Positions 13,704-58,431 of a DNA stretch of 64,000 nucleotides are shown here, piece by piece. Where the stretch lies: the IMG/VR virus record IMGVR_UViG_3300042560_002875; one strand, written 5' to 3'. This DNA is from an uncultured virus (IMG/VR IMGVR_UViG_3300042560_002875) (taxonomy: Duplodnaviria; Heunggongvirae; Uroviricota; Caudoviricetes). Position 1 is the first letter of the stretch, and every line of letters begins with the position of its first letter. Under the pieces are notes generated by a model that was not told the origin of the DNA, ran no database searches, and was given only the letters and a program-made list of their open reading frames with translations. Position numbers and translations under genes: made by a program.

Positions 13704-14420
13704 ATGACCACCCTCACCAAGAACACCGACCTCCTCAAACAGGAGGTCCACGAACACATCACGGCGGATGCCGTCGTCCAGGGTAATTACTGGTCAGACG
13801 GCAAAGGCTGCTTCATCGGGTGCCTGACTTATTCAGGCGACCCCACTCCTGCTGTGGAGCGATTTGGGCTCACTGAGTCCATTCTTCGCATCGCGGAACG
13901 CATCTTTGAATCTCTTCCGCTTGAGGAAGCTAAGCAATTCTTCTTCGACTTTCCCGACGCCGTCGCTATGGACGGTAAAAACCTCTCCTTGATCCATTGG
14001 GTCTTCCTCGGTGAAACCCTAGGAAATCTCCCTCCTCAGCGGCCCGGAATCCAGGCCGTTATTGACCCAGTTATTCATGGCATGGATTTACTGGCTTCTG
14101 GCAACGTCTGGGGGACAGACGCCAGTGCCGCCGCCAGAGACGCCGCCTGGAACGCCGCCGGTGACGCCGCCTGGGCCGCCTCCTGTGCCGGCGCTAGGAC
14201 CGGCTCCTGGGCCGCCTCCTGTGCCGCCTCCTGTGCCGGCGCTAGGACCGGCTCCTGGGCCGCCGCCATGGCCGCCGGTGACGCCGCCGGGGCCGCCTCC
14301 TGCGCCGCCAGGGACGCCGCCTGGAACGCCGCCGGTGACGCCAGTGACGCCGAAACTCGCCGGCAGCGGGACTCCCTGTTGTGGCTCATTCGAGAGGCGC
14401 CTGTTGTGACCCCTTCCTGA
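13704..14420 (+). CDS. Phage protein with Ala/Trp (AARDAAW) low-complexity repeats
   Basis: GKGCFIGC N-terminus; repeated DAAWNAAGDA and AASCAGARTGSW segments. Confidence 0.75.
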   Translation: MTTLTKNTDLLKQEVHEHITADAVVQGNYWSDGKGCFIGCLTYSGDPTPAVERFGLTESILRIAERIFESLPLEEAKQFFFDFPDAVAMDGKNLSLIHWVFLGETLGNLPPQRPGIQAVIDPVIHGMDLLASGNVWGTDASAAARDAAWNAAGDAAWAASCAGARTGSWAASCAASCAGARTGSWAAAMAAGDAAGAASCAARDAAWNAAGDASDAETRRQRDSLLWLIREAPVVTPS

Positions 14421-14460
14421 TCACCCCTGTCCTGCAACCCTCTCTGATGTCTACTCCTTC

Positions 14461-14619
14461 ATGACAGCGCTATACACCCCTCGGCTGCTGCGCGGCGGCT
14501 CCTGGTTCAACTTCCCCAGGGACTGCCCCTCGGCCCATCGCTACCGCGCCCTGCCTGCTGATACCAGCGGCATCATCGGTTTCCGTGTGGTGTACCTCCC
14601 CCGGGAGGTAACACCATGA
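14461..14619 (+). CDS. Stand-alone FGE/CLec variable-region mini-protein, unit 1
   Basis: MTALYTPRLLRGGSWFNFPRDCPSAHRYRALPADTSGIIGFRVVYLPREVTP (52 aa, below the ORF-track cutoff). Confidence 0.8.
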   Translation: MTALYTPRLLRGGSWFNFPRDCPSAHRYRALPADTSGIIGFRVVYLPREVTP

Positions 14620-14774
14620 CAACCCTTGACGCTTCTCGGCTACTGCGCGGGGGCTCCTGGATCTTTTATCCCGGGAGCTACGACTCGGCCTTCCGCTACC
14701 CCTTCCGGTGCGGCGGTGCCTTCAGTTTCATCGGTTTCCGCGTGGTGTACCTCCCCCAGGAGGTAGCGCCATGA
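14616..14774 (+). CDS. Stand-alone FGE/CLec variable-region mini-protein, unit 2
   Basis: MTTLDASRLLRGGSWIFYPGSYDSAFRYPFRCGGAFSFIGFRVVYLPQEVAP; GGAGG RBS and ATGA overlap. Confidence 0.8.
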   Translation: MTTLDASRLLRGGSWIFYPGSYDSAFRYPFRCGGAFSFIGFRVVYLPQEVAP

Positions 14775-15475
14775 CAGCCCCCGCAGTGCGCGGCGGCTCC
14801 TGGGTCAACGGACCGCTTGACTGCCGCGCCGCCTACCGGGGCAGCAGCGACCCGGCCTTCGTCAACTCCGACCTCGGCGTTCGCCCCTGCCGCCTCCTCC
14901 ATCCATCTTCCATTTCTTCAGAGACCATGACTACCTCCAATCACAGCATCTCCGCTTCCGCCCTCAACCTGCCGATGGTTTCCATCGCTCCAGGGCGCTT
15001 CATGATGGGATCCGATTCACCCTCCGCTTTCTCTGATGAGAAGCCGGTCCATGAGGTGATCATCGACAAAGGCTTTGAGATGGCGGAAGCTCCGACCACT
15101 CAAGCCCAGTGGCGATGGGTCGCCGAGAACCTGCCCAAGGTCGAGCGCGATCTCAATCCCGATCCCTCACGCTTCAAGGGCGATGATCGCCCCGTCGAAT
15201 GCGTCTCCTGGTATGACGCCATGGAATTCTGTGCCCGCCTCAGTCAGGCCACAGGTAAGACCTACACCCTCCCTACCGAGGAGCAGTGGGAATACGCCTG
15301 CCGCGCAGGCACCACCACTGAATTCGCTTTCGGTGACACCCTCGATGAGTCCCAGGCACGCTTCAACGCAGATTCCACCTGCGATGTCAAGCAGTACCAA
15401 CCCAACGCCTGGGGCCTCTACGACATGCATGGCCAGGTCTTCGAGTGGTGCCGCAACGAATACAAGCCCTATTGA
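14771..15475 (+). CDS. Circularly permuted FGE-sulfatase (SUMF1/CLec-fold) domain protein; unit 3 fused N-terminally, possible internal start at 14927
   Basis: RGGSW..CRAAYR..LGVR precedes MVSIAPGRFMMGS, PVECVSWYDA, LPTEEQWEYACRAG, PNAWGLYDMHGQVFEWC; stop follows before any C-terminal RGGSW. Confidence 0.85.
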   Translation: MTAPAVRGGSWVNGPLDCRAAYRGSSDPAFVNSDLGVRPCRLLHPSSISSETMTTSNHSISASALNLPMVSIAPGRFMMGSDSPSAFSDEKPVHEVIIDKGFEMAEAPTTQAQWRWVAENLPKVERDLNPDPSRFKGDDRPVECVSWYDAMEFCARLSQATGKTYTLPTEEQWEYACRAGTTTEFAFGDTLDESQARFNADSTCDVKQYQPNAWGLYDMHGQVFEWCRNEYKPY

Positions 15476-15485
15476 TTCCCTGCCC

Positions 15486-15890
15486 ATGCATTCCGATCTG
15501 ATTGGGGGCCGGCTTCGACATTTCATGCATCAAGCCGCCCCCTTTTTCTGCATTGCTATTGCCCTGCTCTGGCATCTTGTCGATGCCTCCTACGCCGCCG
15601 GCAGCCAGCTGCGTCTTGCCCTGGAAGAGCGCAGCCAGCAGCTAGCAGCCCTCCATCTCCACCTCCTCGGCCTCACTCCCCCTGAACCCCAATCCATCCC
15701 TCCTATGACCCTCTCTGTGCCCACTGCGGAAGACCCGGAGCTGACAGCCTTCCGCTGCGCTCTCAATGGAATCGACCTCAGCCTCAATGTGTCCCAGCTG
15801 CGTGCCCTGGCTCGCGAGCGGGGGCACCGCGGCAACAAGGTCTCCCGAGCTCGCCGCTCTGACCTGCTCCTCCTGTTGAGCAGGTCATGA
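15486..15890 (+). CDS. Protein with hydrophobic helix and C-terminal Rho-N/HeH-like motif
   Basis: LNVSQLRALARERG...ARRSDLLLLL. Confidence 0.55.
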   Translation: MHSDLIGGRLRHFMHQAAPFFCIAIALLWHLVDASYAAGSQLRLALEERSQQLAALHLHLLGLTPPEPQSIPPMTLSVPTAEDPELTAFRCALNGIDLSLNVSQLRALARERGHRGNKVSRARRSDLLLLLSRS

Positions 15891-16192
15891 CGCATTATCG
15901 AGTACAACGCGGCGGTACTTGGTTTTACAGGAGGAAACAACAGGCGTATTTACGCTTGGCCTACCGACGCGTCGATAAAGCGCACCACGTAGACGATCTC
16001 GTCGGCTTCCGCGTGGTGTGCCTCCCTCCGGAGGTAGCACCACCTTGGATGCCACTGCCACTGCGCGGCGGCTCCTGGGGCAACCTCCCCGGGGGCCGCC
16101 GCTCGGCCTCCCGCAGCCGCTACCGGCCCGGCTTTGCCTACAGCGGCGTCGGTTTCCGCGTGGTGTGCCTCCCCCGGGAGGAAGCACCATGA
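15887..16192 (+). CDS. Variable-region mini-protein, units 4+5 in tandem
   Basis: RGGTW...GFRVVCLP followed by RGGSW...GFRVVCLP. Confidence 0.8.
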   Translation: MTHYRVQRGGTWFYRRKQQAYLRLAYRRVDKAHHVDDLVGFRVVCLPPEVAPPWMPLPLRGGSWGNLPGGRRSASRSRYRPGFAYSGVGFRVVCLPREEAP

Positions 16193-16527
16193 CAACCCCC
16201 GCAATGCGGGGCGGCTCCTGGTTCAGCGCTCCGCCGGTTCAACTTCCCCAGGAACCGCCGCTCGGCCTACCGCTCGGCTGCCGCGCCGCCAGCCGGCTCA
16301 GCATCAACCCGGCCGACGTCAGCACCATCGTCGGATTTCGCGTGGTGTGCCTCCCTCCGGAGGTCAAGCCCACGCAGGTAGCCATACGCGGCGGCTCCCA
16401 CGCCCAGCTCAACTACCCCTGGTGCCGCTCGACCTGGTGCCGCTCGGCCTGTCGCTGCGTTTGCCATTCGCCCGACTATACCTACGACGACATCGGCTTC
16501 CGCGTGATCTGTCTTCCGCCCTCCTGA
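16189..16527 (+). CDS. Variable-region mini-protein, units 6+7 in tandem
   Basis: RGGSW...GFRVVCLP followed by RGGSH...CRSACR...GFRVICLP; GGAGG and ATGA coupling. Confidence 0.8.
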   Translation: MTTPAMRGGSWFSAPPVQLPQEPPLGLPLGCRAASRLSINPADVSTIVGFRVVCLPPEVKPTQVAIRGGSHAQLNYPWCRSTWCRSACRCVCHSPDYTYDDIGFRVICLPPS

Positions 16528-39676: not shown

Positions 39677-40435
39677 GGACACCTCCCCAGTCAATCATGC
39701 GAATGGCATTCAGTCCTGAAGTAGCACCCCTCCTGCAAGACGCCATTGCGGGGGGGCCTAGCTTCAGGGTGGACACTCCTTACGTTCCAGGGCGCTCACT
39801 GGAGGGGGTGCCAAACGCCAACAGCCCCGCGATGCGCGACAAGATTTACAGGCGTTTCCTGGCAATCCCTCCTGGGAGCCCAAATCAGCCACAGCTTCCA
39901 TCGATCCGGGGCGTATAGATCGCCAGCACTGACGCAGTGGCGCCTGTCCCCGTAACGCAGTGTCTGCACCATGTGCCCCTCGGGTGCTGCATTTGCAGCA
40001 ACGGCCTGCCCTAGCGCCAGCCCAAGCAGCAGCGCCGCCCAGGGGATGTGTGCTGTGCCTAGCCAATTGATTGCTTTCCTGTGCAAGCTTTCGCTCCGTT
40101 CAGGTCAAAAGGTATTCTACCGAATAAGCAGTGGGTATAAGTGCTTACATCCCCGAGCACCACTTGCTTGCCACTGCCAGCCGTGTCGGTCATAATGAAA
40201 GCCCAATCCTTTCACCCCATGGCCCGCAGTCCCTCGATCATCTTTCGCCTTCAGAGCATCGGTGTTGGCTTACTCTTCGCTGCCATCGTGGGCGGTGGCT
40301 CCTACGGCTGGGTCAGCAACATCATCAAGCTCGCTGGCTCCAGCTTTGACCCCCTAGGCGGCGTTGTTGTGATCCGAGCCATTGGGATCCCCATCGTTCC
40401 CCTGGGCATCGTCATGGGCTACGTGCCCTAAACCC

Positions 40436-41053
40436 ATGCTGAAGAACGACCGCTGGATTAAGCAGCAGGCCTCTGCTGGAATGATCGAACCGTTCACTCC
40501 GGAGCTGGTGCGGGAGGTGTATGTGAGCCTCGGCGGCCTTGAGCCGTATGGCCCGATGCGGTGCCCCGTCCTGTCCTACGGCTGCAGCTCCTATGGGTAC
40601 GACCTGCGTCTCTCGCCCAAGGAGTTCCTGATCTTCCGCCACGTCCCCGGCACGGTGATGGACCCCAAGCGGTTCAACCCCGACAACCTGGAGCCTGCTG
40701 CCCTGCACTCAGACAGCGATGGGACCTACTTCATCCTCCCGGCCCACTCCTATGGACTCGGGGTTGCCCGGGAGAAGCTCAAGGTCCCAGCCAATGTCAC
40801 GGTCGTCTGCCTGGGCAAGAGCACTTACGCCCGCCTAGGTATCATTCTCAACACAACTCCCGCCGAGGCCGGCTGGGAGGGCAATCTCACCCTGGAGTTC
40901 AGCAACTCCTCAGGGGCTGACTGCCGCATCTACGCCAATGAAGGCGTTTGCCAGCTCCTGTTCTTCGAGGGGGATCCCTGTGATGTCACCTACGAGGACC
41001 GCGATGGCAAGTATCAGCACCAGCCGGAGAAGGTCGTACTCGCAAGAGTGTGA
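40436..41053 (+). CDS. dcd: dCTP deaminase
   Basis: SYGCSSYGYD, GKSTYARLG, TPAEAGWEG, YANEG.CQ. Confidence 0.95.
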   Translation: MLKNDRWIKQQASAGMIEPFTPELVREVYVSLGGLEPYGPMRCPVLSYGCSSYGYDLRLSPKEFLIFRHVPGTVMDPKRFNPDNLEPAALHSDSDGTYFILPAHSYGLGVAREKLKVPANVTVVCLGKSTYARLGIILNTTPAEAGWEGNLTLEFSNSSGADCRIYANEGVCQLLFFEGDPCDVTYEDRDGKYQHQPEKVVLARV

Positions 41054-44644: not shown

Positions 44645-47128
44645 ATGCCGCCATCCTTCCCGATCTCGCTCAACCCGGCAATCCACGACAAGCCAGCCTG
44701 GCGTGAGGAGTACGGCAGTAACTGGCAGCAGCGAACAGTCGATAGTGACGGCCTCCTCCAATTGATCCGGGCGGGCACTGGCTGGATTGCTGCTGCCATG
44801 AGCTCAACCCACCGCACCACGTCCGCCTTCAAGTACGCGGATCTGGCAGTGGTCGACATCGACTACGGCATGGACCTGGAGGACTTCCTGACCCATGAGC
44901 TCGCTGCCTCCGCTCTCCTCTATTACACAACCGCCAGTCATCAGCCTCAGCCCGGAGCCAATCGCTTCCGGGTGGTCTTCCGTCTCCCTTGCCGCATCGA
45001 CGACCCCGAGCTCTACAAGGCAGTCGTTACCCAGCTGATCGGCACCCTTGGCAGCGACAAGAGTTGCTCAGACCCCTGCCGCATCTTCTACAGCTATTCC
45101 GGCGGCACCCAAAAACTCCTCCACCCAGAAGCCACACTCCCGGAAGCCGTCATCAATGCAGCACGGGAACAACTGCAAGAGGACCTCAAGCGTCGCCGGC
45201 AGGCTACAGAGGAGGCAGATCCCATCTCCATTGCCCAGGCGGAATGGGTTCTGCAGAACGTCATCAATCCCACCGCTGATGGCGAGCGGCATCTCTTCAT
45301 CCGCATCACAGCAGCGGCGGCATCCGTTGGTGACGCTCTTTATGGGGCCTGGTCCGATTGGGCCTCCCGCGGTCACCACGGCCAGGGCAAGAATCGCCGG
45401 CAAACCAGCGAGCGCTTCTTCCGCGGCTTCTCTGGCAACACCACCTTGGCGACTCTCTTCTTCCTGGCGGGAGAGCAGGACCCCAGCTGGCGCAAGCACC
45501 TGCCTGATCATCTCCGCAGTGAATACAGCGATGCCGGCATCCCAGGAGTAGCTGGCTACTCCCACCAGGATTTCCTGGGTCTCCACGAGATCGACCCAGA
45601 TGATCCCGTCCTTGGAGCCTCCACCCCATCCCTCCTGGAATGGGGCGCCTCCTACTCCTCCAGTCCCGCACCTGCAGACAGCGATCTACCCATGCCCGAG
45701 CCGCCGCCCTTTGATGACGCAGGAATCGAATCACAGCTCGATGACGATTTCGAAACCATCAGTTACGGCGACGTCAGTCCAGACCCCGTCACCCCTCCGC
45801 CCAAAAGAGGCCGAGGCCGCCCCACAGGTAGCAAAGACAAATCAGCAGGTGGAGCCGCTGACGAGATCCTGGATCGCATCCGCATCTTCTACCCAGGCCT
45901 GCGACTGAACGTCCTGACCCAGACCATCGAATACGACGGCAAGGACGGCATCACCGAAGTTCCCGACCCCTCCACCGTCTACACCCGTATCTCCAGAGGG
46001 CGCAAGGGAGACCTCTATCCCAAAGGTGGCGTTCACGACATCCTCCAGGTGGAGGCATGGGAGCGGCGCTACAACCCAGTCACTGACTACCTGGAATCCT
46101 GCGCTGCCACTGCACCTGCTCCCTACTGGGACACCATCGCAGAAGAACTCCTCGGGGTGTCCTACGACGAGATCCTCAACCCCCGACTCCCCGATGGCCG
46201 CTTGCTAGCCAATGTCATCCTGCAGCGATTCCTGATTGGCGCCATTGCACGGGCCACTGAACCTGGCTGCGAGCACAGCTGGATGATGATCCTCATCGGT
46301 GACCAGAACAAGGGCAAGTCCTTTTTCTTCCAATACCTCACCCCGCCGGACCACCTCAATCGCTACCCCATGTGCGCCACCGTGCAGCAGGGGATCGGCT
46401 ACCTCAAGGACAGGCCCCACGTCTTGCATGCAGGCTGGGTTGTCCTTCTCGATGAATGCGACCGCTTCTTTGAGCGCCGCTACGTCGAAGAACTCAAGAA
46501 CCTCGTCTCAGTAGCCACCGACAGGTCCGCTCCCAAATACCAAAACGAAAGGTCCTATCCCAGGTCCTTCGTCCTGGCGGGCAACACCAACCATGACAGC
46601 TTCATGCTGGATCCCACCGGAAATCGGAGGTTTCTTCCCATCCGCGTCACCGGCAAGGTCCTCGCACCTCGCAGCGAGAAGAACCTGATCATCGACCTCG
46701 ACAAGGTCAAGACCGATCGGGACGCCATCTGGTCTGCTGCTCGAAAGGCTTACCTCGATGGCGAGCCCCATGGCTTCAGCTCTGACGAGATCAGCCAGGT
46801 GGAGGAGTACATGACCAACTTCATGGTGGACGACCCATTGATGGATGCCGTCTCCAGGGTCCTGCAGCTCCATCCCAGCACGATCCATGTGGGGCGACCC
46901 GCCTACTTGATGGCTGATATCTGCAAGCACTTGAGCATCGAGGAAAAAGACTTCCACAGAGTGAGGCAGCCGATCGGTGATGTCCTCAAGAGGCTGGGCC
47001 TGCGAAAGGTCCGGATCAGACCTCCAGGCAAACGGAATCCTCAGAACTACTGGATGGAGGGCGACCCTGACGATCCCAACACGGAGGCGGAGCCCTCTGA
47101 GAAGAGCGACATTCCGCTCGACTGGTAG
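44645..47128 (+). CDS. Primase (AEP-like/PriCT) fused to a VirE/VapE-family helicase/ATPase
   Basis: VVDID, YTTASH, RFRVVF; GDQNKGKS Walker A, LLDE Walker B, GNTN, DPTGNRRF. Confidence 0.9.
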   Translation: MPPSFPISLNPAIHDKPAWREEYGSNWQQRTVDSDGLLQLIRAGTGWIAAAMSSTHRTTSAFKYADLAVVDIDYGMDLEDFLTHELAASALLYYTTASHQPQPGANRFRVVFRLPCRIDDPELYKAVVTQLIGTLGSDKSCSDPCRIFYSYSGGTQKLLHPEATLPEAVINAAREQLQEDLKRRRQATEEADPISIAQAEWVLQNVINPTADGERHLFIRITAAAASVGDALYGAWSDWASRGHHGQGKNRRQTSERFFRGFSGNTTLATLFFLAGEQDPSWRKHLPDHLRSEYSDAGIPGVAGYSHQDFLGLHEIDPDDPVLGASTPSLLEWGASYSSSPAPADSDLPMPEPPPFDDAGIESQLDDDFETISYGDVSPDPVTPPPKRGRGRPTGSKDKSAGGAADEILDRIRIFYPGLRLNVLTQTIEYDGKDGITEVPDPSTVYTRISRGRKGDLYPKGGVHDILQVEAWERRYNPVTDYLESCAATAPAPYWDTIAEELLGVSYDEILNPRLPDGRLLANVILQRFLIGAIARATEPGCEHSWMMILIGDQNKGKSFFFQYLTPPDHLNRYPMCATVQQGIGYLKDRPHVLHAGWVVLLDECDRFFERRYVEELKNLVSVATDRSAPKYQNERSYPRSFVLAGNTNHDSFMLDPTGNRRFLPIRVTGKVLAPRSEKNLIIDLDKVKTDRDAIWSAARKAYLDGEPHGFSSDEISQVEEYMTNFMVDDPLMDAVSRVLQLHPSTIHVGRPAYLMADICKHLSIEEKDFHRVRQPIGDVLKRLGLRKVRIRPPGKRNPQNYWMEGDPDDPNTEAEPSEKSDIPLDW

Positions 47129-51861: not shown

Positions 51862-52629
51862 ATGTCCACAAAACACGCATTCGAAGGGATGGCCCACCGC
51901 CCGGCCGAGTTGACTCACCACTTTTCATCGTGCCTGCCAGGGCCGGTTGCAAGTATTGCTCTGTCCATTTTCTTTGGGCCTCCCGAAGCATTTCCTCCTG
52001 AAGATCTCGACTCATTTACTGAGTTTTGCGCTCTCTCCAAGGGGAAGGACCTTTCCCTGGTCCTCTGGCAGTTCCTCTCCGCGGAGATCGCTTGCCTATT
52101 AAAATTGGATTCGCCTGCTGACAGGGATATGCAACGTGATTGTGCGCTCGATCCTGTCATTGCTGGCCTTGAGGTCCTTTGCGCAGGCGAGAAATGGGAC
52201 CTAGCCCAAGAAGCGCGTGCTTATGCTTACGAACTGTCTCTTTCTTGGGGGAGGCGGATCGTCAATTCATCAGCCCTCCCCACTTGCCACGACAGCAGCC
52301 CTGAAGCCAAGGCTGAAATCAAGGCAATGCTTGTAGAGTCTCACATTGCACTTTCCGCCGCAGATGCCGCTGCTGTGGCGGAAATGATCGCAGGAGGGCA
52401 ACCTCCGGAAAGCGAAGGTCTAGCTGACCTTGTTTATTGGACTATCAACCATATGTGCATCTGTCATGCCAGGGCCGCCCAAGCGGCCTTGGCTGAGGAC
52501 GCTGACTCTGCTGATGCAGTTCTCCGATCATTGGCCGCAATGAAACAGCATCGATATGTCCAGTTGGGCCGCTTGAGAACCCTGATTGAACAATCCCCAA
52601 CAGTTGACTCTCTATCCACTTCCTCATGA
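51862..52629 (+). CDS. Ala-rich phage protein, paralog of the 13704 ORF
   Basis: GKDLSLVLWQFL / DPVIAGLEVL..GEKW versus GKNLSLIHWVFL / DPVIHGMDLL..GNVW. Confidence 0.65.
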   Translation: MSTKHAFEGMAHRPAELTHHFSSCLPGPVASIALSIFFGPPEAFPPEDLDSFTEFCALSKGKDLSLVLWQFLSAEIACLLKLDSPADRDMQRDCALDPVIAGLEVLCAGEKWDLAQEARAYAYELSLSWGRRIVNSSALPTCHDSSPEAKAEIKAMLVESHIALSAADAAAVAEMIAGGQPPESEGLADLVYWTINHMCICHARAAQAALAEDADSADAVLRSLAAMKQHRYVQLGRLRTLIEQSPTVDSLSTSS

Positions 52630-53426
52630 CTGCAGCGCCCGCCCCAGAGTGGCTCATGGAAACCACCCCAGATGGGGAGGTTGCCCTTGCGCCCCTGCCT
52701 GTTCCGCCCAAATCAGAAAACCCCTTCAAGTTGTGGGTGATAGGACCTACAGGTGATATGCCGCAGCGGCGTATCTACCTTGCTCTTCACAACGATTACT
52801 CGGAAGTCCCTGTCTGGGATACCGATTTACCTGAGGACCGCTGCGGGGAAATTGTCGTCCGCCGTCTACTCAAGGGAGATCGCGGCCATTACGGCCCCCT
52901 AGAGCACGCCCATCTATCGGTGTTATTCCAAGTGGATCACGACACGATGGTTCAACTAAGGACGCATCGCATTGCCTCTTTCGATGTTCAGTCCAATCGA
53001 TACACAGGGCAGCGCTTTATCGATGTCGCCACTGGTGCGCTCCCGGTTCAGGAAGCTTTCCATTTCCGGCCCCCTGGCACCTACAGGGATCGCCAAGGGG
53101 ACCCATATCTCTGGAGCGAGCATGACAACGCCAAGCTGGCCATCGTCTACCAGAACGCTTGCCACCAGTATCACGAACTCAGAAGACAGGGGATATCAGA
53201 GGAGCACGCCAGGCAAGTTTTGCCGGGAGCCTTTCTCCAAAATGTTTTTCTAACCATGAATGCTCGTATGTGGTTGCACCTGCTTGATGTGCGCCTCAAG
53301 CCAGATGCTCAGTACGAAATTCGCTGGGTTATGGAACTTCTGACTGGCGCCATTCGAAATTGGATTCCCGAGATTGCCAATTGGTACTCAGCTAACCGCC
53401 AGGGCAAAGCCCGGCTTGCCCCATGA
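52626..53426 (+). CDS. thyX: FAD-dependent thymidylate synthase
   Basis: GHYGPLEH, QLRTHR.ASFDVQS.RY, EHARQVLP, AQYEIR. Confidence 0.92.
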   Translation: MTAAPAPEWLMETTPDGEVALAPLPVPPKSENPFKLWVIGPTGDMPQRRIYLALHNDYSEVPVWDTDLPEDRCGEIVVRRLLKGDRGHYGPLEHAHLSVLFQVDHDTMVQLRTHRIASFDVQSNRYTGQRFIDVATGALPVQEAFHFRPPGTYRDRQGDPYLWSEHDNAKLAIVYQNACHQYHELRRQGISEEHARQVLPGAFLQNVFLTMNARMWLHLLDVRLKPDAQYEIRWVMELLTGAIRNWIPEIANWYSANRQGKARLAP

Positions 53427-55527: not shown

Positions 55528-56010
55528 TCATCGATCCCCTGGGGCCGGCATTCCCGCTCGGCGCATTTTCTCTTGTATTCCTGCCATGCGCTCATTCATC
55601 TCAGCAATGGCCTGGGCGGTGGACTGTCCCATATCAGCAGCGGGTGAACTAAATCCTGGCTGGGACCTTGATGCCGCGGCTGCTCTCAATCGAGCCAACT
55701 CCTCTGCCTGGGCCTGGGCCTGGGCGTAAGCGATTTTCTGTTGCTCTGCTTGCGCCATGGCCGCCAGTACCTCGCTCATGGCAAGAGATACTTGTCTCTG
55801 GACGATTTCCTGGATACGCAAATCCATCCCATCGAGCTCGTTCTCGATGATGCCTTCTGTTTCCTCTACCAGCTTGGCGTAGGCCGGGCCAAATTCCCTG
55901 AGGATTTTCTCTGTCCTCCTCCCATTCCGGCGAGAGAAGTACCAGCCACTGCTGGCCCCGCTTGCGATTCCGAGGAACCACAGGATGGACATCAATCCGG
56001 TAGAGATCAT
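55528..56010 (-). CDS. Membrane-anchored coiled-coil protein
   Basis: N-terminal hydrophobic helix; Q/A-rich coil. Confidence 0.55.
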   Translation of the reverse strand: MISTGLMSILWFLGIASGASSGWYFSRRNGRRTEKILREFGPAYAKLVEETEGIIENELDGMDLRIQEIVQRQVSLAMSEVLAAMAQAEQQKIAYAQAQAQAEELARLRAAAASRSQPGFSSPAADMGQSTAQAIAEMNERMAGIQEKMRRAGMPAPGDR

Positions 56011-56088
56011 GGGGCTTGGCGAACGTAGTGCATGCCTGGGCTGTCGCCCTGCGGTAAATGTACCAGTTTCACCCCATCAAGGCGAATT

Positions 56089-56382
56089 TCAGAATTGCTT
56101 TTCTTTTTCGCCCTCTTCCCTCCGAAGACGTGGGTTGTACGTGTTGAAGCCCAGAGCCCAGCTGGCCATGCCGATGGCTCCTGCGATGAGGCCGCCTTCT
56201 GAATTCAGCCCCGCAGCTTGGCGACCGTCCTGCCAGCAGGCTTTGACCTCTCCGCCAGAGCGCCGGCAGTCCCAGATATACACGGCACCAAAAGCCAAGC
56301 TAGCCGCCATGGCAAGAACAGCAACAGAGCCAGCGGCAACAGCTGGGCGTGCTCCGACGCCAGGAACAGGTGTAGATGCCAT
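56089..56382 (-). CDS. Small two-TM membrane protein (holin candidate)
   Basis: Two hydrophobic helices, charged C-terminus, near the lysozyme gene. Confidence 0.45.
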   Translation of the reverse strand: MASTPVPGVGARPAVAAGSVAVLAMAASLAFGAVYIWDCRRSGGEVKACWQDGRQAAGLNSEGGLIAGAIGMASWALGFNTYNPRLRREEGEKEKQF

Positions 56383-56443
56383 AGCGCCGGGACCAAATCA
56401 ATGCGAACCTATTCTGGCAGAAACGCATGACCTCTCTTTCACC

Positions 56444-56773
56444 ATGGATCTCCGCGAGTACCAGATTCGCTCCTCCCAGTTTGCGATCTATCCCGACTGC
56501 GGCAGTAACCCCATCTACCCCACCCTGGGCCTCTGCGGTGAATCAGGGGAGGTGGCAGAGAAAGTCAAAAAGGTGATTCGTGACAAGGAGGGCCACTTTG
56601 ATGGCGCCGCCATCACGGCCATCACTCTTGAATTGGGTGACGTGCTTTGGTACGTGGCGCAGTTGGCCAATGAGCTGGACATCGACCTCGGGGATGTCGC
56701 CGCCAACAACCTAGACAAACTGGCCAACCGGCAACATAGGGGCGTGCTCAGCGGCAGCGGGGACGATCGGTAA
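56444..56773 (+). CDS. mazG: MazG-like nucleotide pyrophosphohydrolase
   Basis: LGLCGESGEVAEKVKK, ELGDVLWY, N..KL..R..RG.L.GSGD.R. Confidence 0.92.
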   Translation: MDLREYQIRSSQFAIYPDCGSNPIYPTLGLCGESGEVAEKVKKVIRDKEGHFDGAAITAITLELGDVLWYVAQLANELDIDLGDVAANNLDKLANRQHRGVLSGSGDDR

Positions 56774-58063
56774 CTACCCCTTCCAGTGGAATGGGAATCG
56801 CTTGATCGATTCGTGTCGCAATTCCACCAACCGCTCAGCAGCCTCCTTCGGGAGGCTCCCGCCTGGGAGGCCTATGTGGATATGTGTTCCGTGTCCTCTG
56901 GGATCATTGTGGGGGCCAAAGATTTCAGCTCCGGTTCCAGCCAGGGCGTTTTGGACTTGTTGCGCGTACCACGTCTTCCTTGGAAGCCAGGAGTTTTTGG
57001 GTTCGTCTGGATCCTGCCAATCGGTGGCGTCGATGGCTTTACCGATGTAGTGCAAAGAATTCTCTGAGTGTTTGCCCACTCCGCCAAAGTCTGGATGCTC
57101 TCTCACCCTGAGTCCTGCGCCCTGAAGCATCTTCCCAAGGTCTGTGATTTTCACCATCGCCCCGCCCCTTTTACTGGCGCGTGCTACCGCTGGAGGTGCT
57201 CCCGTAGTAGCAGCAGCGGCGGGGGCGGCAGGGACTGGCGAGGCCTCTGGTGAATCCGACAGGATGGCCTGCACCAGCGACGGAAAGAATCCTCCTGCGG
57301 CCATCCTGGGGGCTTCTTGCCCGGCGCCCTGGGAGCGCTCTGCTCCGCCTCTCCCGTTCAGCCCAGCGATGGCGCCAACAAGTGGAGCAAAGGCTCCAGC
57401 AACACCGCCGCCCAGTAGGGCACTCGTGAACGGTGAGACCTGTCGATTCCGGGGAGCACTCAATGATGTGATCGGCCTAGATGAGGCCGTGTCGTCATCG
57501 CCGCCGCCCAGCATGGATTTCAGCAGGGTGCGCGTAAAGCTGTCGTTCTCTGGTGGACTAGGGGATGGCGTCGCTGGGGCTGGAGCCGGGGCGCCCCCGC
57601 CTTTAGAGAGAGCTGCAATCTGTGAGTCGTAGAACTTCTTGAGCTCTGGATACTGCTTGACGGGCTGCCCGTAGTAGCTCGTGCCTTTCATCGTCGGGAA
57701 CGATGCCCACTCTGGAGCCAGCTTGGCGGCCACATCCGGAGTGAAGCCTTCTTTGTTGATCAGGTCCCGGGCGCCACGCTGCCTGACCAGCTCAAGTGCT
57801 GCGAAGTCTTGAGACTGAGGCCCAAAATCCTTGAGCCCTAGGCGCTGTTGCAGTGGGCGCCAAGTACCCGGCATGATCTGGTAGGCACCCGCAGCGGCAC
57901 TCCTGTAGCCACCGGAAGCGACGACCCGGTCAGGATGCCGCTCCAGTGACGGTACCATGCCTCCCCCGAACACCACCTGGTATCCGTCGGGCTTCCCATC
58001 CCGCCAGGTGCCTTCTGCGTGCCTGATGGTATTGAGAAGGGCGCGCTCTTGAATTGTTGTCAT
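56774..58063 (-). CDS. Lambda-type lysozyme plus C-terminal M15-like Zn peptidase domain
   Basis: IRHAEGT, AAGAYQI, QD.AA, EWASFP, YYGQP; C-terminal SLHY.GKAID...HIH. Confidence 0.85.
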   Translation of the reverse strand: MTTIQERALLNTIRHAEGTWRDGKPDGYQVVFGGGMVPSLERHPDRVVASGGYRSAAAGAYQIMPGTWRPLQQRLGLKDFGPQSQDFAALELVRQRGARDLINKEGFTPDVAAKLAPEWASFPTMKGTSYYGQPVKQYPELKKFYDSQIAALSKGGGAPAPAPATPSPSPPENDSFTRTLLKSMLGGGDDDTASSRPITSLSAPRNRQVSPFTSALLGGGVAGAFAPLVGAIAGLNGRGGAERSQGAGQEAPRMAAGGFFPSLVQAILSDSPEASPVPAAPAAAATTGAPPAVARASKRGGAMVKITDLGKMLQGAGLRVREHPDFGGVGKHSENSLHYIGKAIDATDWQDPDEPKNSWLPRKTWYAQQVQNALAGTGAEIFGPHNDPRGHGTHIHIGLPGGSLPKEAAERLVELRHESIKRFPFHWKG

Positions 58064-58431
58064 AGATCCCAGTCTCCGTCTTCTTCCATGGCGATATCAC
58101 TGAAGTCAATGTCCATGCCGTGGAAAGCCTGGAAAGCTTGAATGCGCTCTTCTGCGTAGCGCTCCACGTCTTCTGTGCTGGGCCTCCCCCCGAAGACCTG
58201 TACTAGCTCCTCCCCTGAATCAGGAAGACCGCAATCGAAGTCGTCGACAATCTCGATTTGCGTGGCAATCCCCGCCTCTGCAGCGACCTCTCGGAAGTGG
58301 TGGGCTAGGGAGAAGATCTTGGCCTGAGCCGTGATCACCAGATCCAGCAGCTCGGCTTGGGATGCTTGATGCAGGCTGTCCCTCATGCGACGCAGGATGA
58401 ATTCCTCCTCCATCGTCAGCTCACCAGTCAT
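58060..58431 (-). CDS. Acidic hypothetical protein
   Basis: 123-aa ORF coupled to the lysozyme gene. Confidence 0.6.
   Translation of the reverse strand: MTGELTMEEEFILRRMRDSLHQASQAELLDLVITAQAKIFSLAHHFREVAAEAGIATQIEIVDDFDCGLPDSGEELVQVFGGRPSTEDVERYAEERIQAFQAFHGMDIDFSDIAMEEDGDWDL

Follow-up and report, generated by a model that had tools for sequence, protein, structure and literature searches.

A lectin-like FGE-sulfatase domain encoded in pieces: a truncated scaffold and seven variable segments in a tailed-phage genome

Positions 14461-16527 of a 64,000-nucleotide stretch of DNA (hereafter the window) from an uncultured virus of the Caudoviricetes (IMG/VR record IMGVR_UViG_3300042560_002875) carry seven short coding units, each with the motif RGGSW…GFRVV, around the scaffold of an FGE-sulfatase domain of the CLec type. 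The source is a tailed-phage genome of about 87 kb, of which the window covers a part and about 23 kb lies outside, and window positions 14300-16181 are matched at 97% identity by a related virus record, G002, which is 100% complete. Coding at the locus is entirely on the + strand, and the seven units are spread over five coupled open reading frames (ORFs). A DNA profile of the units searched with nhmmer finds exactly seven copies in the window, with E-values of 8e-30 to 1.5e-8; unit 6 appears as two partial matches, and the sole further match has an E-value of 0.086. Because this profile was made from the same seven units, the independent check on them is Pfam. The seven-unit array, which had been noticed in an earlier reading of the DNA letters (the sequence-only reading), is thus confirmed by the ORFs, by nhmmer and by Pfam.

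Unit 1 occupies a mini-ORF of 52 aa at 14461-14619 (MTALYTPRLLRGGSW...GFRVVYLPREVTP), whose stop codon overlaps the next ATG as ATGA; it matches positions 223-262 of PHROG 18508 and has no Pfam match at E <= 0.01. Unit 2, also of 52 aa (14616-14774), has an ATGA overlap at both ends and a GGAGG 7-8 nt before its ATG, and corresponds to positions 214-254 of the FGE-sulfatase family PF03781 (E 1e-3, 19.3 bits, below the curated cut-off of 23.3). The third ORF (14771-15475, 234 aa) consists of unit 3 and a linker of about 20 residues (together 14771-14926), followed in frame by the N-terminus of the scaffold (14927-15475, ORF residues 53-234). Unit 3 has a tail variant, G[VIL]RPC.., that is kept in relatives: here it ends GVRPCRLL and then reads into the scaffold, the first codon of which is an in-frame ATG within a vestigial CCATGAC junction. 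Unit 3 and its linker are hypervariable between phages. The scaffold ends ...EWCRNEYKPY*, before the last segment of the domain. It is followed by an ORF of 134 aa (15486-15890), which starts MHSDLIGG, overlaps unit 4 by ATGA, and gave no match in Pfam, PHROG or PADLOC; a hydrophobic helix, a coiled region and an HeH/SAP-like motif were noted on visual inspection. Since a related locus (L014) has a unit ORF starting MHSDLRGGSW at the same place, this ORF is an insertion into a former unit ORF, of whose start MHSDLIGG is the remnant. Units 4 and 5 are fused in frame (15887-16192, 101 aa; PF03781 positions 217-254, E 5e-7), and so are units 6 and 7 (16189-16527, 112 aa; positions 212-254, E 5e-5). 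Unit 6 combines profile positions 5-60 with 41-128 and is a chimera, part of it being an out-of-frame piece of another unit; in unit 7 the motif is RGGSH, and 15 nt are duplicated in frame. By eye, most units retain one Cys, in the motif CRSA. The sequence-only reading was right about the units and about the ATGA overlaps, of which there are four (at 14616, 14771, 15887 and 16189), but it had missed that unit 3 is in frame with the scaffold, that the 134-aa ORF intervenes, that unit 6 is a chimera, and that unit 7 is duplicated in part.

What is missing from the scaffold is what the units encode. The scaffold aligns to positions 5-194 of the 255 of PF03781 (E 4e-40, 138.5 bits), and the unit ORFs to positions 212-254, two of them above the curated cut-off (30.0 and 23.5 bits). 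PHROG 18508 is cut alike, with the scaffold at 13-202 and the units at 222-263 of 266. No polypeptide of the window contains the whole domain in its usual order: the 212-254 part lies upstream in the scaffold ORF and in four other ORFs. The units are therefore homologues of the C-terminal, variable part of CLec domains of the FGE type, and it is precisely this part that the scaffold is missing, in the window as in relatives, as the sequence-only reading had proposed. In true formylglycine-generating enzymes (FGEs), the C-terminal segment holds the catalytic cysteine pair and a copper site. The complete relatives G002 and G003 each have a single scaffold with nine units, and neither contains an FGE domain in full. 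The scaffold evolves with a dN/dS of 0.07-0.13. An AlphaFold2 model of the 234-aa ORF reaches a mean confidence (pLDDT) of 75.5, and its best Foldseek matches are PvdO (5hha, E 7.6e-9), FGE (2q17) and TvpA (2y3c). In this model, residues 1-26 of unit 3 stay below a pLDDT of 50 and residues 31-40 reach about 79, so that only the G-V-R-P-C strand is placed. PADLOC had no match for the scaffold, the units or their neighbours.

Translation signals lie at the borders of the units. The tail GGTTTCCGCGTGGTGT(A/G)CCTCCC..GGAGG, which had been described as common to most units, closes five of the seven (1, 2, 4, 5 and 6); unit 7 has a degenerate form of it, and unit 3 lacks it. As RNA it is predicted to fold at 14585-14625 into a hairpin, GGUGU(R)CCUCC-loop4-GGAGGU..CACC, that pairs the Shine-Dalgarno (SD) sequence and ends at the next AUG, and equivalent hairpins lie at 14740-14780, 16011-16051, 16158-16198 and 16340-16380. 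The five have 12-15 bp and a 4-nt loop, with folding energies of -20.6 to -22.0 kcal/mol and z-scores of -3.4 to -4.7 against shuffled sequences, 0-1 of 200 shuffles folding as well. The hairpin could enforce translational coupling, or it could be a relic of the target hairpin of a diversity-generating retroelement (DGR). It is not essential to the architecture, because junctions of an array on a metagenome contig (L064) have no strong hairpin (-1.9 to -7.6 kcal/mol). The coupling by SD and ATGA, in contrast, is conserved even where the junction is unrelated in sequence: in the array of L062-L064 it reads aatctggagaagtgaaATGAC, unrelated to cccgggaggtaacaccATGAC of the window, and has the same design of an SD-like motif followed by an ATGA overlap. 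Between the related locus L013 (4100-4135, CCTCCCCCCGGG) and the window (14590-14620, CCTCCCCCGGG), a one-base change in a C run turns two unit ORFs into one ORF of 104 aa; homopolymer slippage could toggle between separate and fused units.

Is this split arrangement kept in other phages, or is it an accident of one genome? Six loci with 41 units were compared (the window with 7 units, L010, L012 and L013 with 9 each, L014 with 5 and L015 with 2); counted by virus record, G002, G003 and G004 have 9 units each, G005 has 5 and G006 has 2. In every one of the 41 units RGGSW and GFRV share a single reading frame, and the ORFs concerned, which hold one to four units, begin with ATG. The invariant residues of the GFR motif use several synonymous codons (Gly as GGT in 7, GGC in 12, GGA in 2 and GGG in 11; Phe as TTC in 17 and TTT in 11; Arg as CGT in 12 and CGC in 20), and thus the constraint acts on the protein. 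Unit number and order vary among the related phages, as the sequence-only reading had anticipated, and this occurs with no decay of the frames. Random, decayed duplicates with frameshifts and without coupling, against which that reading had set its proposal, were not seen in these six loci.

A scaffold stop codon directly before a unit ORF is found in at least four phage lineages, which have from 2 to more than 20 units. In L014, a gap of 10 nt lies between the scaffold stop and MHSDLRGGSW; in L015, the scaffold of which is 54% identical, the gap is 2 nt; and in L064 the scaffold stop overlaps the next unit ORF (GTGA). In an AT-richer, unrelated phage-like region within a bacterial metagenome-assembled genome (L045), a truncated scaffold is accompanied by an ORF of three units and by other unit ORFs, and scaffold and unit overlap by 28 nt. 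There (L045 3205-4178) the scaffold ends at a run of eight A (GAAAAAAAATGG), inside which the next unit ORF starts in the -1 frame; ribosomal or transcriptional slippage at this run could fuse scaffold and unit. The 19.8-kb metagenome contig with L062-L064 has at least 23 units around one scaffold with three fused N-terminal units. Apart from a few irregular ones, the units of this array are exactly 33 codons long, in ORFs of 1-3 units with ATGA overlaps of the form ..KSGEVK*/MTK...

Searches at the protein level indicate a wide distribution of the pattern. The scaffold motif is present in 115 of the best 120 homologues of the 234-aa protein; 79 of these are canonical, 17 have one to four units at the N-terminus and none at the C-terminus, and in 7 the scaffold has units on either side. 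A profile searched against 1.84 billion representative proteins has 40,633 matches at E <= 1e-3, and among the best 150 of these about 60, counted by eye, consist of units only and are 92-215 aa long. In metagenomes, about 17 proteins made up solely of units begin with MT.. and terminate in ..REV(A/T)P. Some single chains contain many units in cis: P0156 has four units, the scaffold and five further units, and P0178 and P0162 have, in this order, a scaffold followed by six units and five units followed by a scaffold. P0009, P0012 and P0013 read one or two units in the wrong frame before an in-frame unit, which indicates that the frame of units relative to the scaffold varies among relatives; the wrong-frame stretch appears as an Ala/Ser/Pro-rich "linker" (..CAAAPG..VSASAA..) after the scaffold. 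On a related, incomplete phage contig (G008), units stand as N-terminal modules, three or one, on proteins that are otherwise not FGE-like (L117 1159-2660), and no scaffold was found in the 26.8-kb fragment of G008 that holds L117 and L089. A scan of viral contigs for the unit-tail pattern returned the same four phage contigs only. Among 185,579 species genomes a strict two-unit pattern had no match, and a relaxed unit pattern had 35, namely 30 ordinary FGE genes, four template-like repeats and one true array (L045). The two-unit ORF had no tblastn match at E <= 1e-3 in 50,697 GenBank phage records.

By what process did the units become so different from each other? The sequence-only reading had called them DGR-type, and their variable nucleotides do show a pattern of the adenine-mutagenesis type, so that the name holds beyond mere homology. 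The variable columns of the units are the Asn columns of the four template-like repeats, which come from bacterial genomes (entropy 2.99 versus 1.12 bits, p 2e-5), and one of these repeats adjoins a reverse transcriptase (RT). Of the codons at the hypervariable columns 94% end in C or T, and Lys, Glu, Gln, Trp and Met together account for 4% of residues. In four-fold codon boxes the ratio of NNY to NNR is 93:5 at DGR-type columns and 71:69 at other variable columns (Fisher 1e-14). Serine is encoded by AGY at variable columns and by TCN at conserved ones, and the single-column patterns G-N-C, N-T-C, C-N-G and T-N-C fit templates of GAC, ATC, CAG and TAC. Hypervariable bases fall on codon positions 1, 2 and 3 in numbers of 12, 13 and 2 in the clade of the window and of 14, 15 and 2 in the 23-unit array of L062/64, where 257 of 276 codons are NNY; in a control of 31 unrelated bacterial FGE ends the numbers are 21, 20 and 31. 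Between unit 5 and its counterpart in G002, 12 of 27 DGR-type positions have changed, compared with 6 of the 84 other positions (p 3e-5). Of the template-like sequences found, an Asn-rich unit on the G008 contig (L089 3840-3938) is the closest; its mismatches to unit 5 fall on 22 of 29 A positions and 8 of 91 non-A positions. Depletion of A at conserved positions was also considered as a sign of a DGR and dropped, as the control FGE ends show the same (1.8%). We regard it as probable that a DGR wrote much of the unit diversity, in an ancestor or in trans.

The enzyme and its template were searched for in the window and in its relatives. In the window there is no RT among the ORFs of at least 300 aa scanned by Pfam, and tblastn with a genuine DGR RT (from L092) has a best E-value of 0.38. 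RVT_1 was absent from six related virus records (G002 to G007), two of which are 100% complete, and the tblastn search found no such RT in G002-G005 or G008; the RTs of two classical DGRs in G009 and G010 were recovered at E 1e-20 as a positive control. The metagenome loci L059-L067 showed no RT among ORFs of at least 130 aa in the parts scanned. G002 and G003 hold only the nine arrayed units, and thus no template repeat (TR). Cyanobacterial templates, taken from the 16 of 401 sampled genomes with the motif, differ from the units at 20-35% of non-A positions, and none of them is the template. With neither RT nor TR in the window or in the complete relatives, the locus is not a self-contained DGR.

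The arrays point to recombination: they are mosaic among phages with 97-100% identical flanks, their upstream and downstream blocks being reassorted. The fused unit and its linker have a dN of 0.29-0.31 and a dS of 0.24-0.33, compared with a dS of 0.07-0.11 for the adjoining scaffold (L012, L013); this excess at synonymous sites points to replacement of the fused unit, not to drift. The 3′ part of unit 6 resembles unit 3 over 73 nt (77%). A Gam-like Gp157 gene lies 2 kb downstream of the array in the window, and a Rad52-family annealing protein or recombinase is encoded 1.2 kb downstream of the 23-unit array of L062-L064. The sequence-only reading had offered, as one of two possibilities, that cassettes are swapped into the scaffold gene, and the mosaic arrays together with the synonymous divergence of the fused unit favour this indirectly.

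Its other possibility was complementation in trans, for which a prediction of scaffold and peptide in complex had been suggested. Run for scaffold residues 53-234 with the unit-1 peptide, the prediction completes the fold and passes with an interface score (ipSAE) of 0.95, compared with 0.02 for the best of three controls. The mark for this score is reached by 116 of 157 solved complexes and by 2 of 215 mismatched pairs, and is a rough one here, custom alignments having been used. The runs share at least 96% of contacts, of which there are about 215, the partner has a pLDDT of 86, and residues 6-30 and 32-48 of the peptide are placed at the scaffold interface. Such a prediction is a statement of complementarity between scaffold and unit, not of binding, and since structures of intact FGE domains have been solved, the pass may reflect memory of those folds; complementation in trans is thus a candidate reading, drawn from one predicted complex under this reservation. 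The two-unit ORF of units 4-5, modelled alone, has no confident fold (mean pLDDT 45.6, predicted TM-score 0.23).

The reading that we favour, tentatively and as slightly less than an even bet for the whole chain of steps, is that of a split CLec module in which a scaffold is completed by interchangeable, DGR-written tip peptides that are reshuffled by recombination. We are surer of what is directly seen: how the locus is built, its protein-level constraint, the mutational pattern, and the lack of RT and template repeat. A phage accessory module would encode a lectin-like FGE-sulfatase/CLec binding domain in pieces, that is, one conserved scaffold without its last ~45 residues and seven versions of this ligand-contacting segment. 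One version, unit 3, would be fused to the front of the scaffold, and the other six, in four small ORFs, would be translated by coupling through SD and ATGA overlap. A unit would dock and complete the fold. The fused unit would do so in cis and the free peptides, of one or two units, in trans, and a single genome could in this way display several binding specificities on one constant core. A circular permutation, by which unit 3 completes the scaffold in cis, is plausible from the fold model. The diversity of the units would have been written by adenine-specific mutagenesis of the DGR type on AAY-type codons; as RT and template repeat are not in the phage, this mutagenesis would be ancestral or supplied in trans. 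Homologous recombination at the repeated unit ends would then duplicate, delete and exchange units between phages, the scaffold-fused unit included.

Several observations weigh against split-module assembly, or against parts of it. Translation of the mini-ORFs is something we infer from signals and constraint in the sequence, and open frames alone are no proof, as all three frames are open across the GC-rich array. The average dN/dS of units is about 1, and units 4, 6 and 7 have irregularities suggestive of relaxed constraint, namely a lost CRSA motif, a chimera and a duplication. Strong tail hairpins are specific to one clade. The low AlphaFold2 confidence on unit 3 leaves its fit in cis unproven, and if that fit holds, unit 3 would compete with the free peptides; the memory that may lie behind the predicted complex has been mentioned. 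A simple picture of one peptide for one scaffold does not explain relatives of the P0016 type, which have extra units despite a complete single-chain domain (the 7 of 115 with units on both sides), nor the up to nine units in one polypeptide of P0156. As for the mutagenesis, when 31 distinct units are compared in pairs, the share of mismatches that fall on A positions of one partner never exceeds about half, so that no TR is seen among the units; positions that are not hypervariable differ pairwise by 9-26% within arrays, which means that the units were not recently rewritten from one template; and the constancy of the third base could come partly from strong positive selection on young paralogues. 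It is possible, though in our view rather doubtful, that the array is better described as a set of polyclonal binders, in which retroelement-written tips, whether free, chained or attached to other proteins as docking tags, compete for the truncated scaffold, with an RT borrowed from a co-infecting relative or from the host.

Could the free units be a mere store, from which recombination or gene conversion donates sequence into the scaffold-fused position, the peptides having no role of their own? We think this unlikely, though much of what is seen at the locus would suit it: the mosaicism between near-identical phages, the synonymous divergence of the fused unit beside a quiet scaffold, as replacement predicts, the chimeric unit 6, the conserved unit ends that supply the homology needed, and the Rad52-family protein near the 23-unit array. 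Silent cassettes, however, need no SD, ATG or coupled stops of their own, and the units have them even in the lineage with an unrelated junction; the residues of the fold are constrained at the protein level in free units; the different 3′ end of unit 3 leaves it without downstream homology to the free units, which in the sampled phages share at most 77% identity with any fused unit; and L015 and L045, which have no fused unit, are still split. Less probable again is that the locus is debris: frameshifts, an insertion and tandem duplication by slippage would have broken up what was once a canonical FGE gene targeted by a DGR, leaving functionless pieces to drift. The irregular units 4, 6 and 7, the ORF inserted into a former unit, the unit dN/dS near 1, the frames that are open anyway in a GC-rich stretch and the lack of any remaining RT or TR would suit such a history. 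Drifting pieces would hardly stay in frame in 41 of 41 cases with synonymous variation at invariant residues, next to a scaffold under strong purifying selection, and debris accounts poorly for a split and a coupling that at least four lineages retain, with scaffolds as little as 54% identical, and that recur in an unrelated phage-like region, for expansion to more than 20 units around one scaffold, or for the roughly 60 unit-only proteins counted by eye among the best 150 representatives.

It seems similarly improbable that no retroelement was ever involved, and that duplication with ordinary positive selection produced a DGR-like pattern as a by-product of young paralogues with C-ending codons. 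Such a history would need no RT or TR, and none is found in the window or the complete relatives; the units contain no pair of TR and variable region (VR) and differ at 9-26% of their non-variable positions, and the N-T-C column fits a simple hydrophobic constraint. Yet selection for diversity would not be expected to keep Lys, Glu, Gln, Trp and Met at 4% of residues in 11 exposed, hypervariable columns, or to divide serine codons between AGY and TCN according to the column; the sets at C-N-G (Arg, Leu, Gln, Pro) and G-N-C (Gly, Ala, Asp, Val) make no chemical sense and fit CAG and GAC templates; the variable columns are the Asn columns of genuine templates, one of them beside an RT; and a related phage contig has an Asn-rich, template-like unit that diverges by only 9% at non-A positions. 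Recoding, finally, would make the split only apparent, ribosomal frameshifting or polymerase slippage joining the scaffold to the downstream unit as an ordinary full-length FGE domain. The A8 run at the scaffold end of L045 (GAAAAAAAATGG), where a -1 shift would read into METKYNRRIMRGGGG..., and the -1 frame of the next unit ORF in L015 and L064 are what one would look for, but L014 would require a +1 shift and has no visible slippery site, the 134-aa ORF lies between scaffold and unit 4 in the window and its closest relatives, each downstream ORF has a start codon of its own, and the upstream units are left unexplained; we therefore give this explanation very little weight.

How does this locus relate to known systems? 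In DGRs with FGE-type CLec targets, such as TvpA of Treponema denticola (PDB 2Y3C) and those of cyanobacteria and phages, the fold and the variable segment are the same as here. The columns that vary are likewise the Asn (AAY) columns of real templates, and the NNY codons agree with the spectrum of 15 residues expected from AAC (PMC5758913). The GC-rich tail with a 4-nt-loop hairpin, present at the 3′ end of five units, may correspond to the target-recognition elements of DGRs, but it also pairs the SD and is absent in the L064 array, and an initiation of mutagenic homing (IMH) site needs a TR to define it. Unlike in DGRs, neither RT nor TR is present in the window or in two complete relatives, the units differ at non-A positions too, and the variable segments are detached as mini-ORFs beside a single scaffold that has no C-terminal variable segment. 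The survey of Wu et al. (2018; PMC5758913) records tandem target genes (up to eight), targets of 44 aa and remote targets in DGRs; we therefore place the array as a variant of DGR-target architecture and not as a new category. The full-text literature searched, including passages of PMC7159879 and PMC5758913, gave no arrays of VR-only mini-genes and no split or always-truncated FGE scaffold, though the supplementary tables of Wu et al. (2018) may list similar targets; this agrees with the statement of the sequence-only reading that no equivalent has been described, with tandem and 44-aa targets on record. Canonical cyanophage FGE genes, those of Microcystis phages Ma-LMM01 (gp062) and MaMV-DC, are 43-49% identical to the scaffold, and their segment ends ...RGGSWSSVPDCCRSAIRYDYYRRVFRSDDIGFRVVCVG; unlike the window, gp062 of Ma-LMM01 has a single complete domain with one in-frame C-terminal segment.

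Cassette variation is known from pilE/pilS of Neisseria, vlsE of Borrelia and the orphan C-terminal cassettes of CdiA/Rhs/MafB toxins. The array shares with these a constant part, alternative pieces arrayed in the same orientation, conserved flanks that permit exchange and mosaicism between strains; it differs in that the "expression" gene is incomplete in all lineages seen, and in that the cassettes have their own ATG, mostly an SD-like motif, coupled stops and fold residues constrained as protein. In fragment or donor-strand complementation, represented by chaperone-usher pilins, RNase S, strand 11 of split GFP and engineered alternate-frame folding, an incomplete fold is completed by a short segment from another chain or place, and the predicted complex of scaffold and unit 1 would resemble this. 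We know of no natural acceptor whose gene is accompanied by a library of alternative segments to complete it.

The neighbourhood gives some idea of the phage itself. Elsewhere in the window, Pfam and PHROG matches include Gp157/Gam-like, DUF932, GP88, SSB, VapE primase, ThyX and MazG, and the locus sits among early or accessory genes, not in the tail module; its target may thus be a host or defence component instead of a surface receptor. The array of L045 adjoins DNA methylases and Mom. The gene directly upstream (13704-14420) encodes a 238-aa protein with an Ala/Trp-rich C-terminal repeat (..AARDAAWNAAGDAAWAASCAG..) that varies in length and sequence among related phages (proteins of 238, 214 and 219 aa) and has weak DNA matches in the unrelated phages Skermania SPI1 and Pseudomonas PPpW-3; among GenBank phages, the locus has no DNA relative beyond short repeats of this gene. 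A nucleotide-metabolism set lies at 44645-47128, 52626-53426, 55985-56773 and 40382-41053 (VapE-type primase, ThyX, MazG-domain protein, dCTP-deaminase-like protein), and the best GenBank phage matches of the primase are Synechococcus phage S-LBS1 and cyanophage S-2L, at about 29% identity. Homologues are mostly cyanobacterial or from Microcystis phage. A weak match to the NblA phycobilisome-degradation family at 58060-58431 (E 0.009, below the cut-off) is the only hint of a cyanobacterial host within the window. The nearest genome, G001, shares 52% of the sampled words of the window and may contain phage contigs through binning; by eye it has an RT of the group II intron type and an FGE domain fused to a beta-propeller-like region (L009, L002). 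Having neither the array nor its units nor a photosystem reaction-centre gene (Photo_RC), G001 was rejected as a clue to the host.

CLec domains varied by DGRs are, to our knowledge, the most variable protein sites known, and each has been viewed as a single gene with a single variable tip. In the present locus the tip is separate from the core, exists in many copies (seven, and more than twenty in one relative) and has its own translation signals, and the core is single and never complete. For the DGR field, the question raised is how arrays of adenine-mutagenised repeats persist in complete phage genomes without an RT or a template. If the array is a set of polyclonal binders, diversity would be displayed by assembly of proteins and not by one gene for each variant, and orphan variable repeats would be serviced by a foreign DGR. 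And if the pieces do assemble, 2 kb of DNA could suffice for the phage to present many specificities simultaneously, and its locus would be a ready-made natural design for split-scaffold binder libraries.

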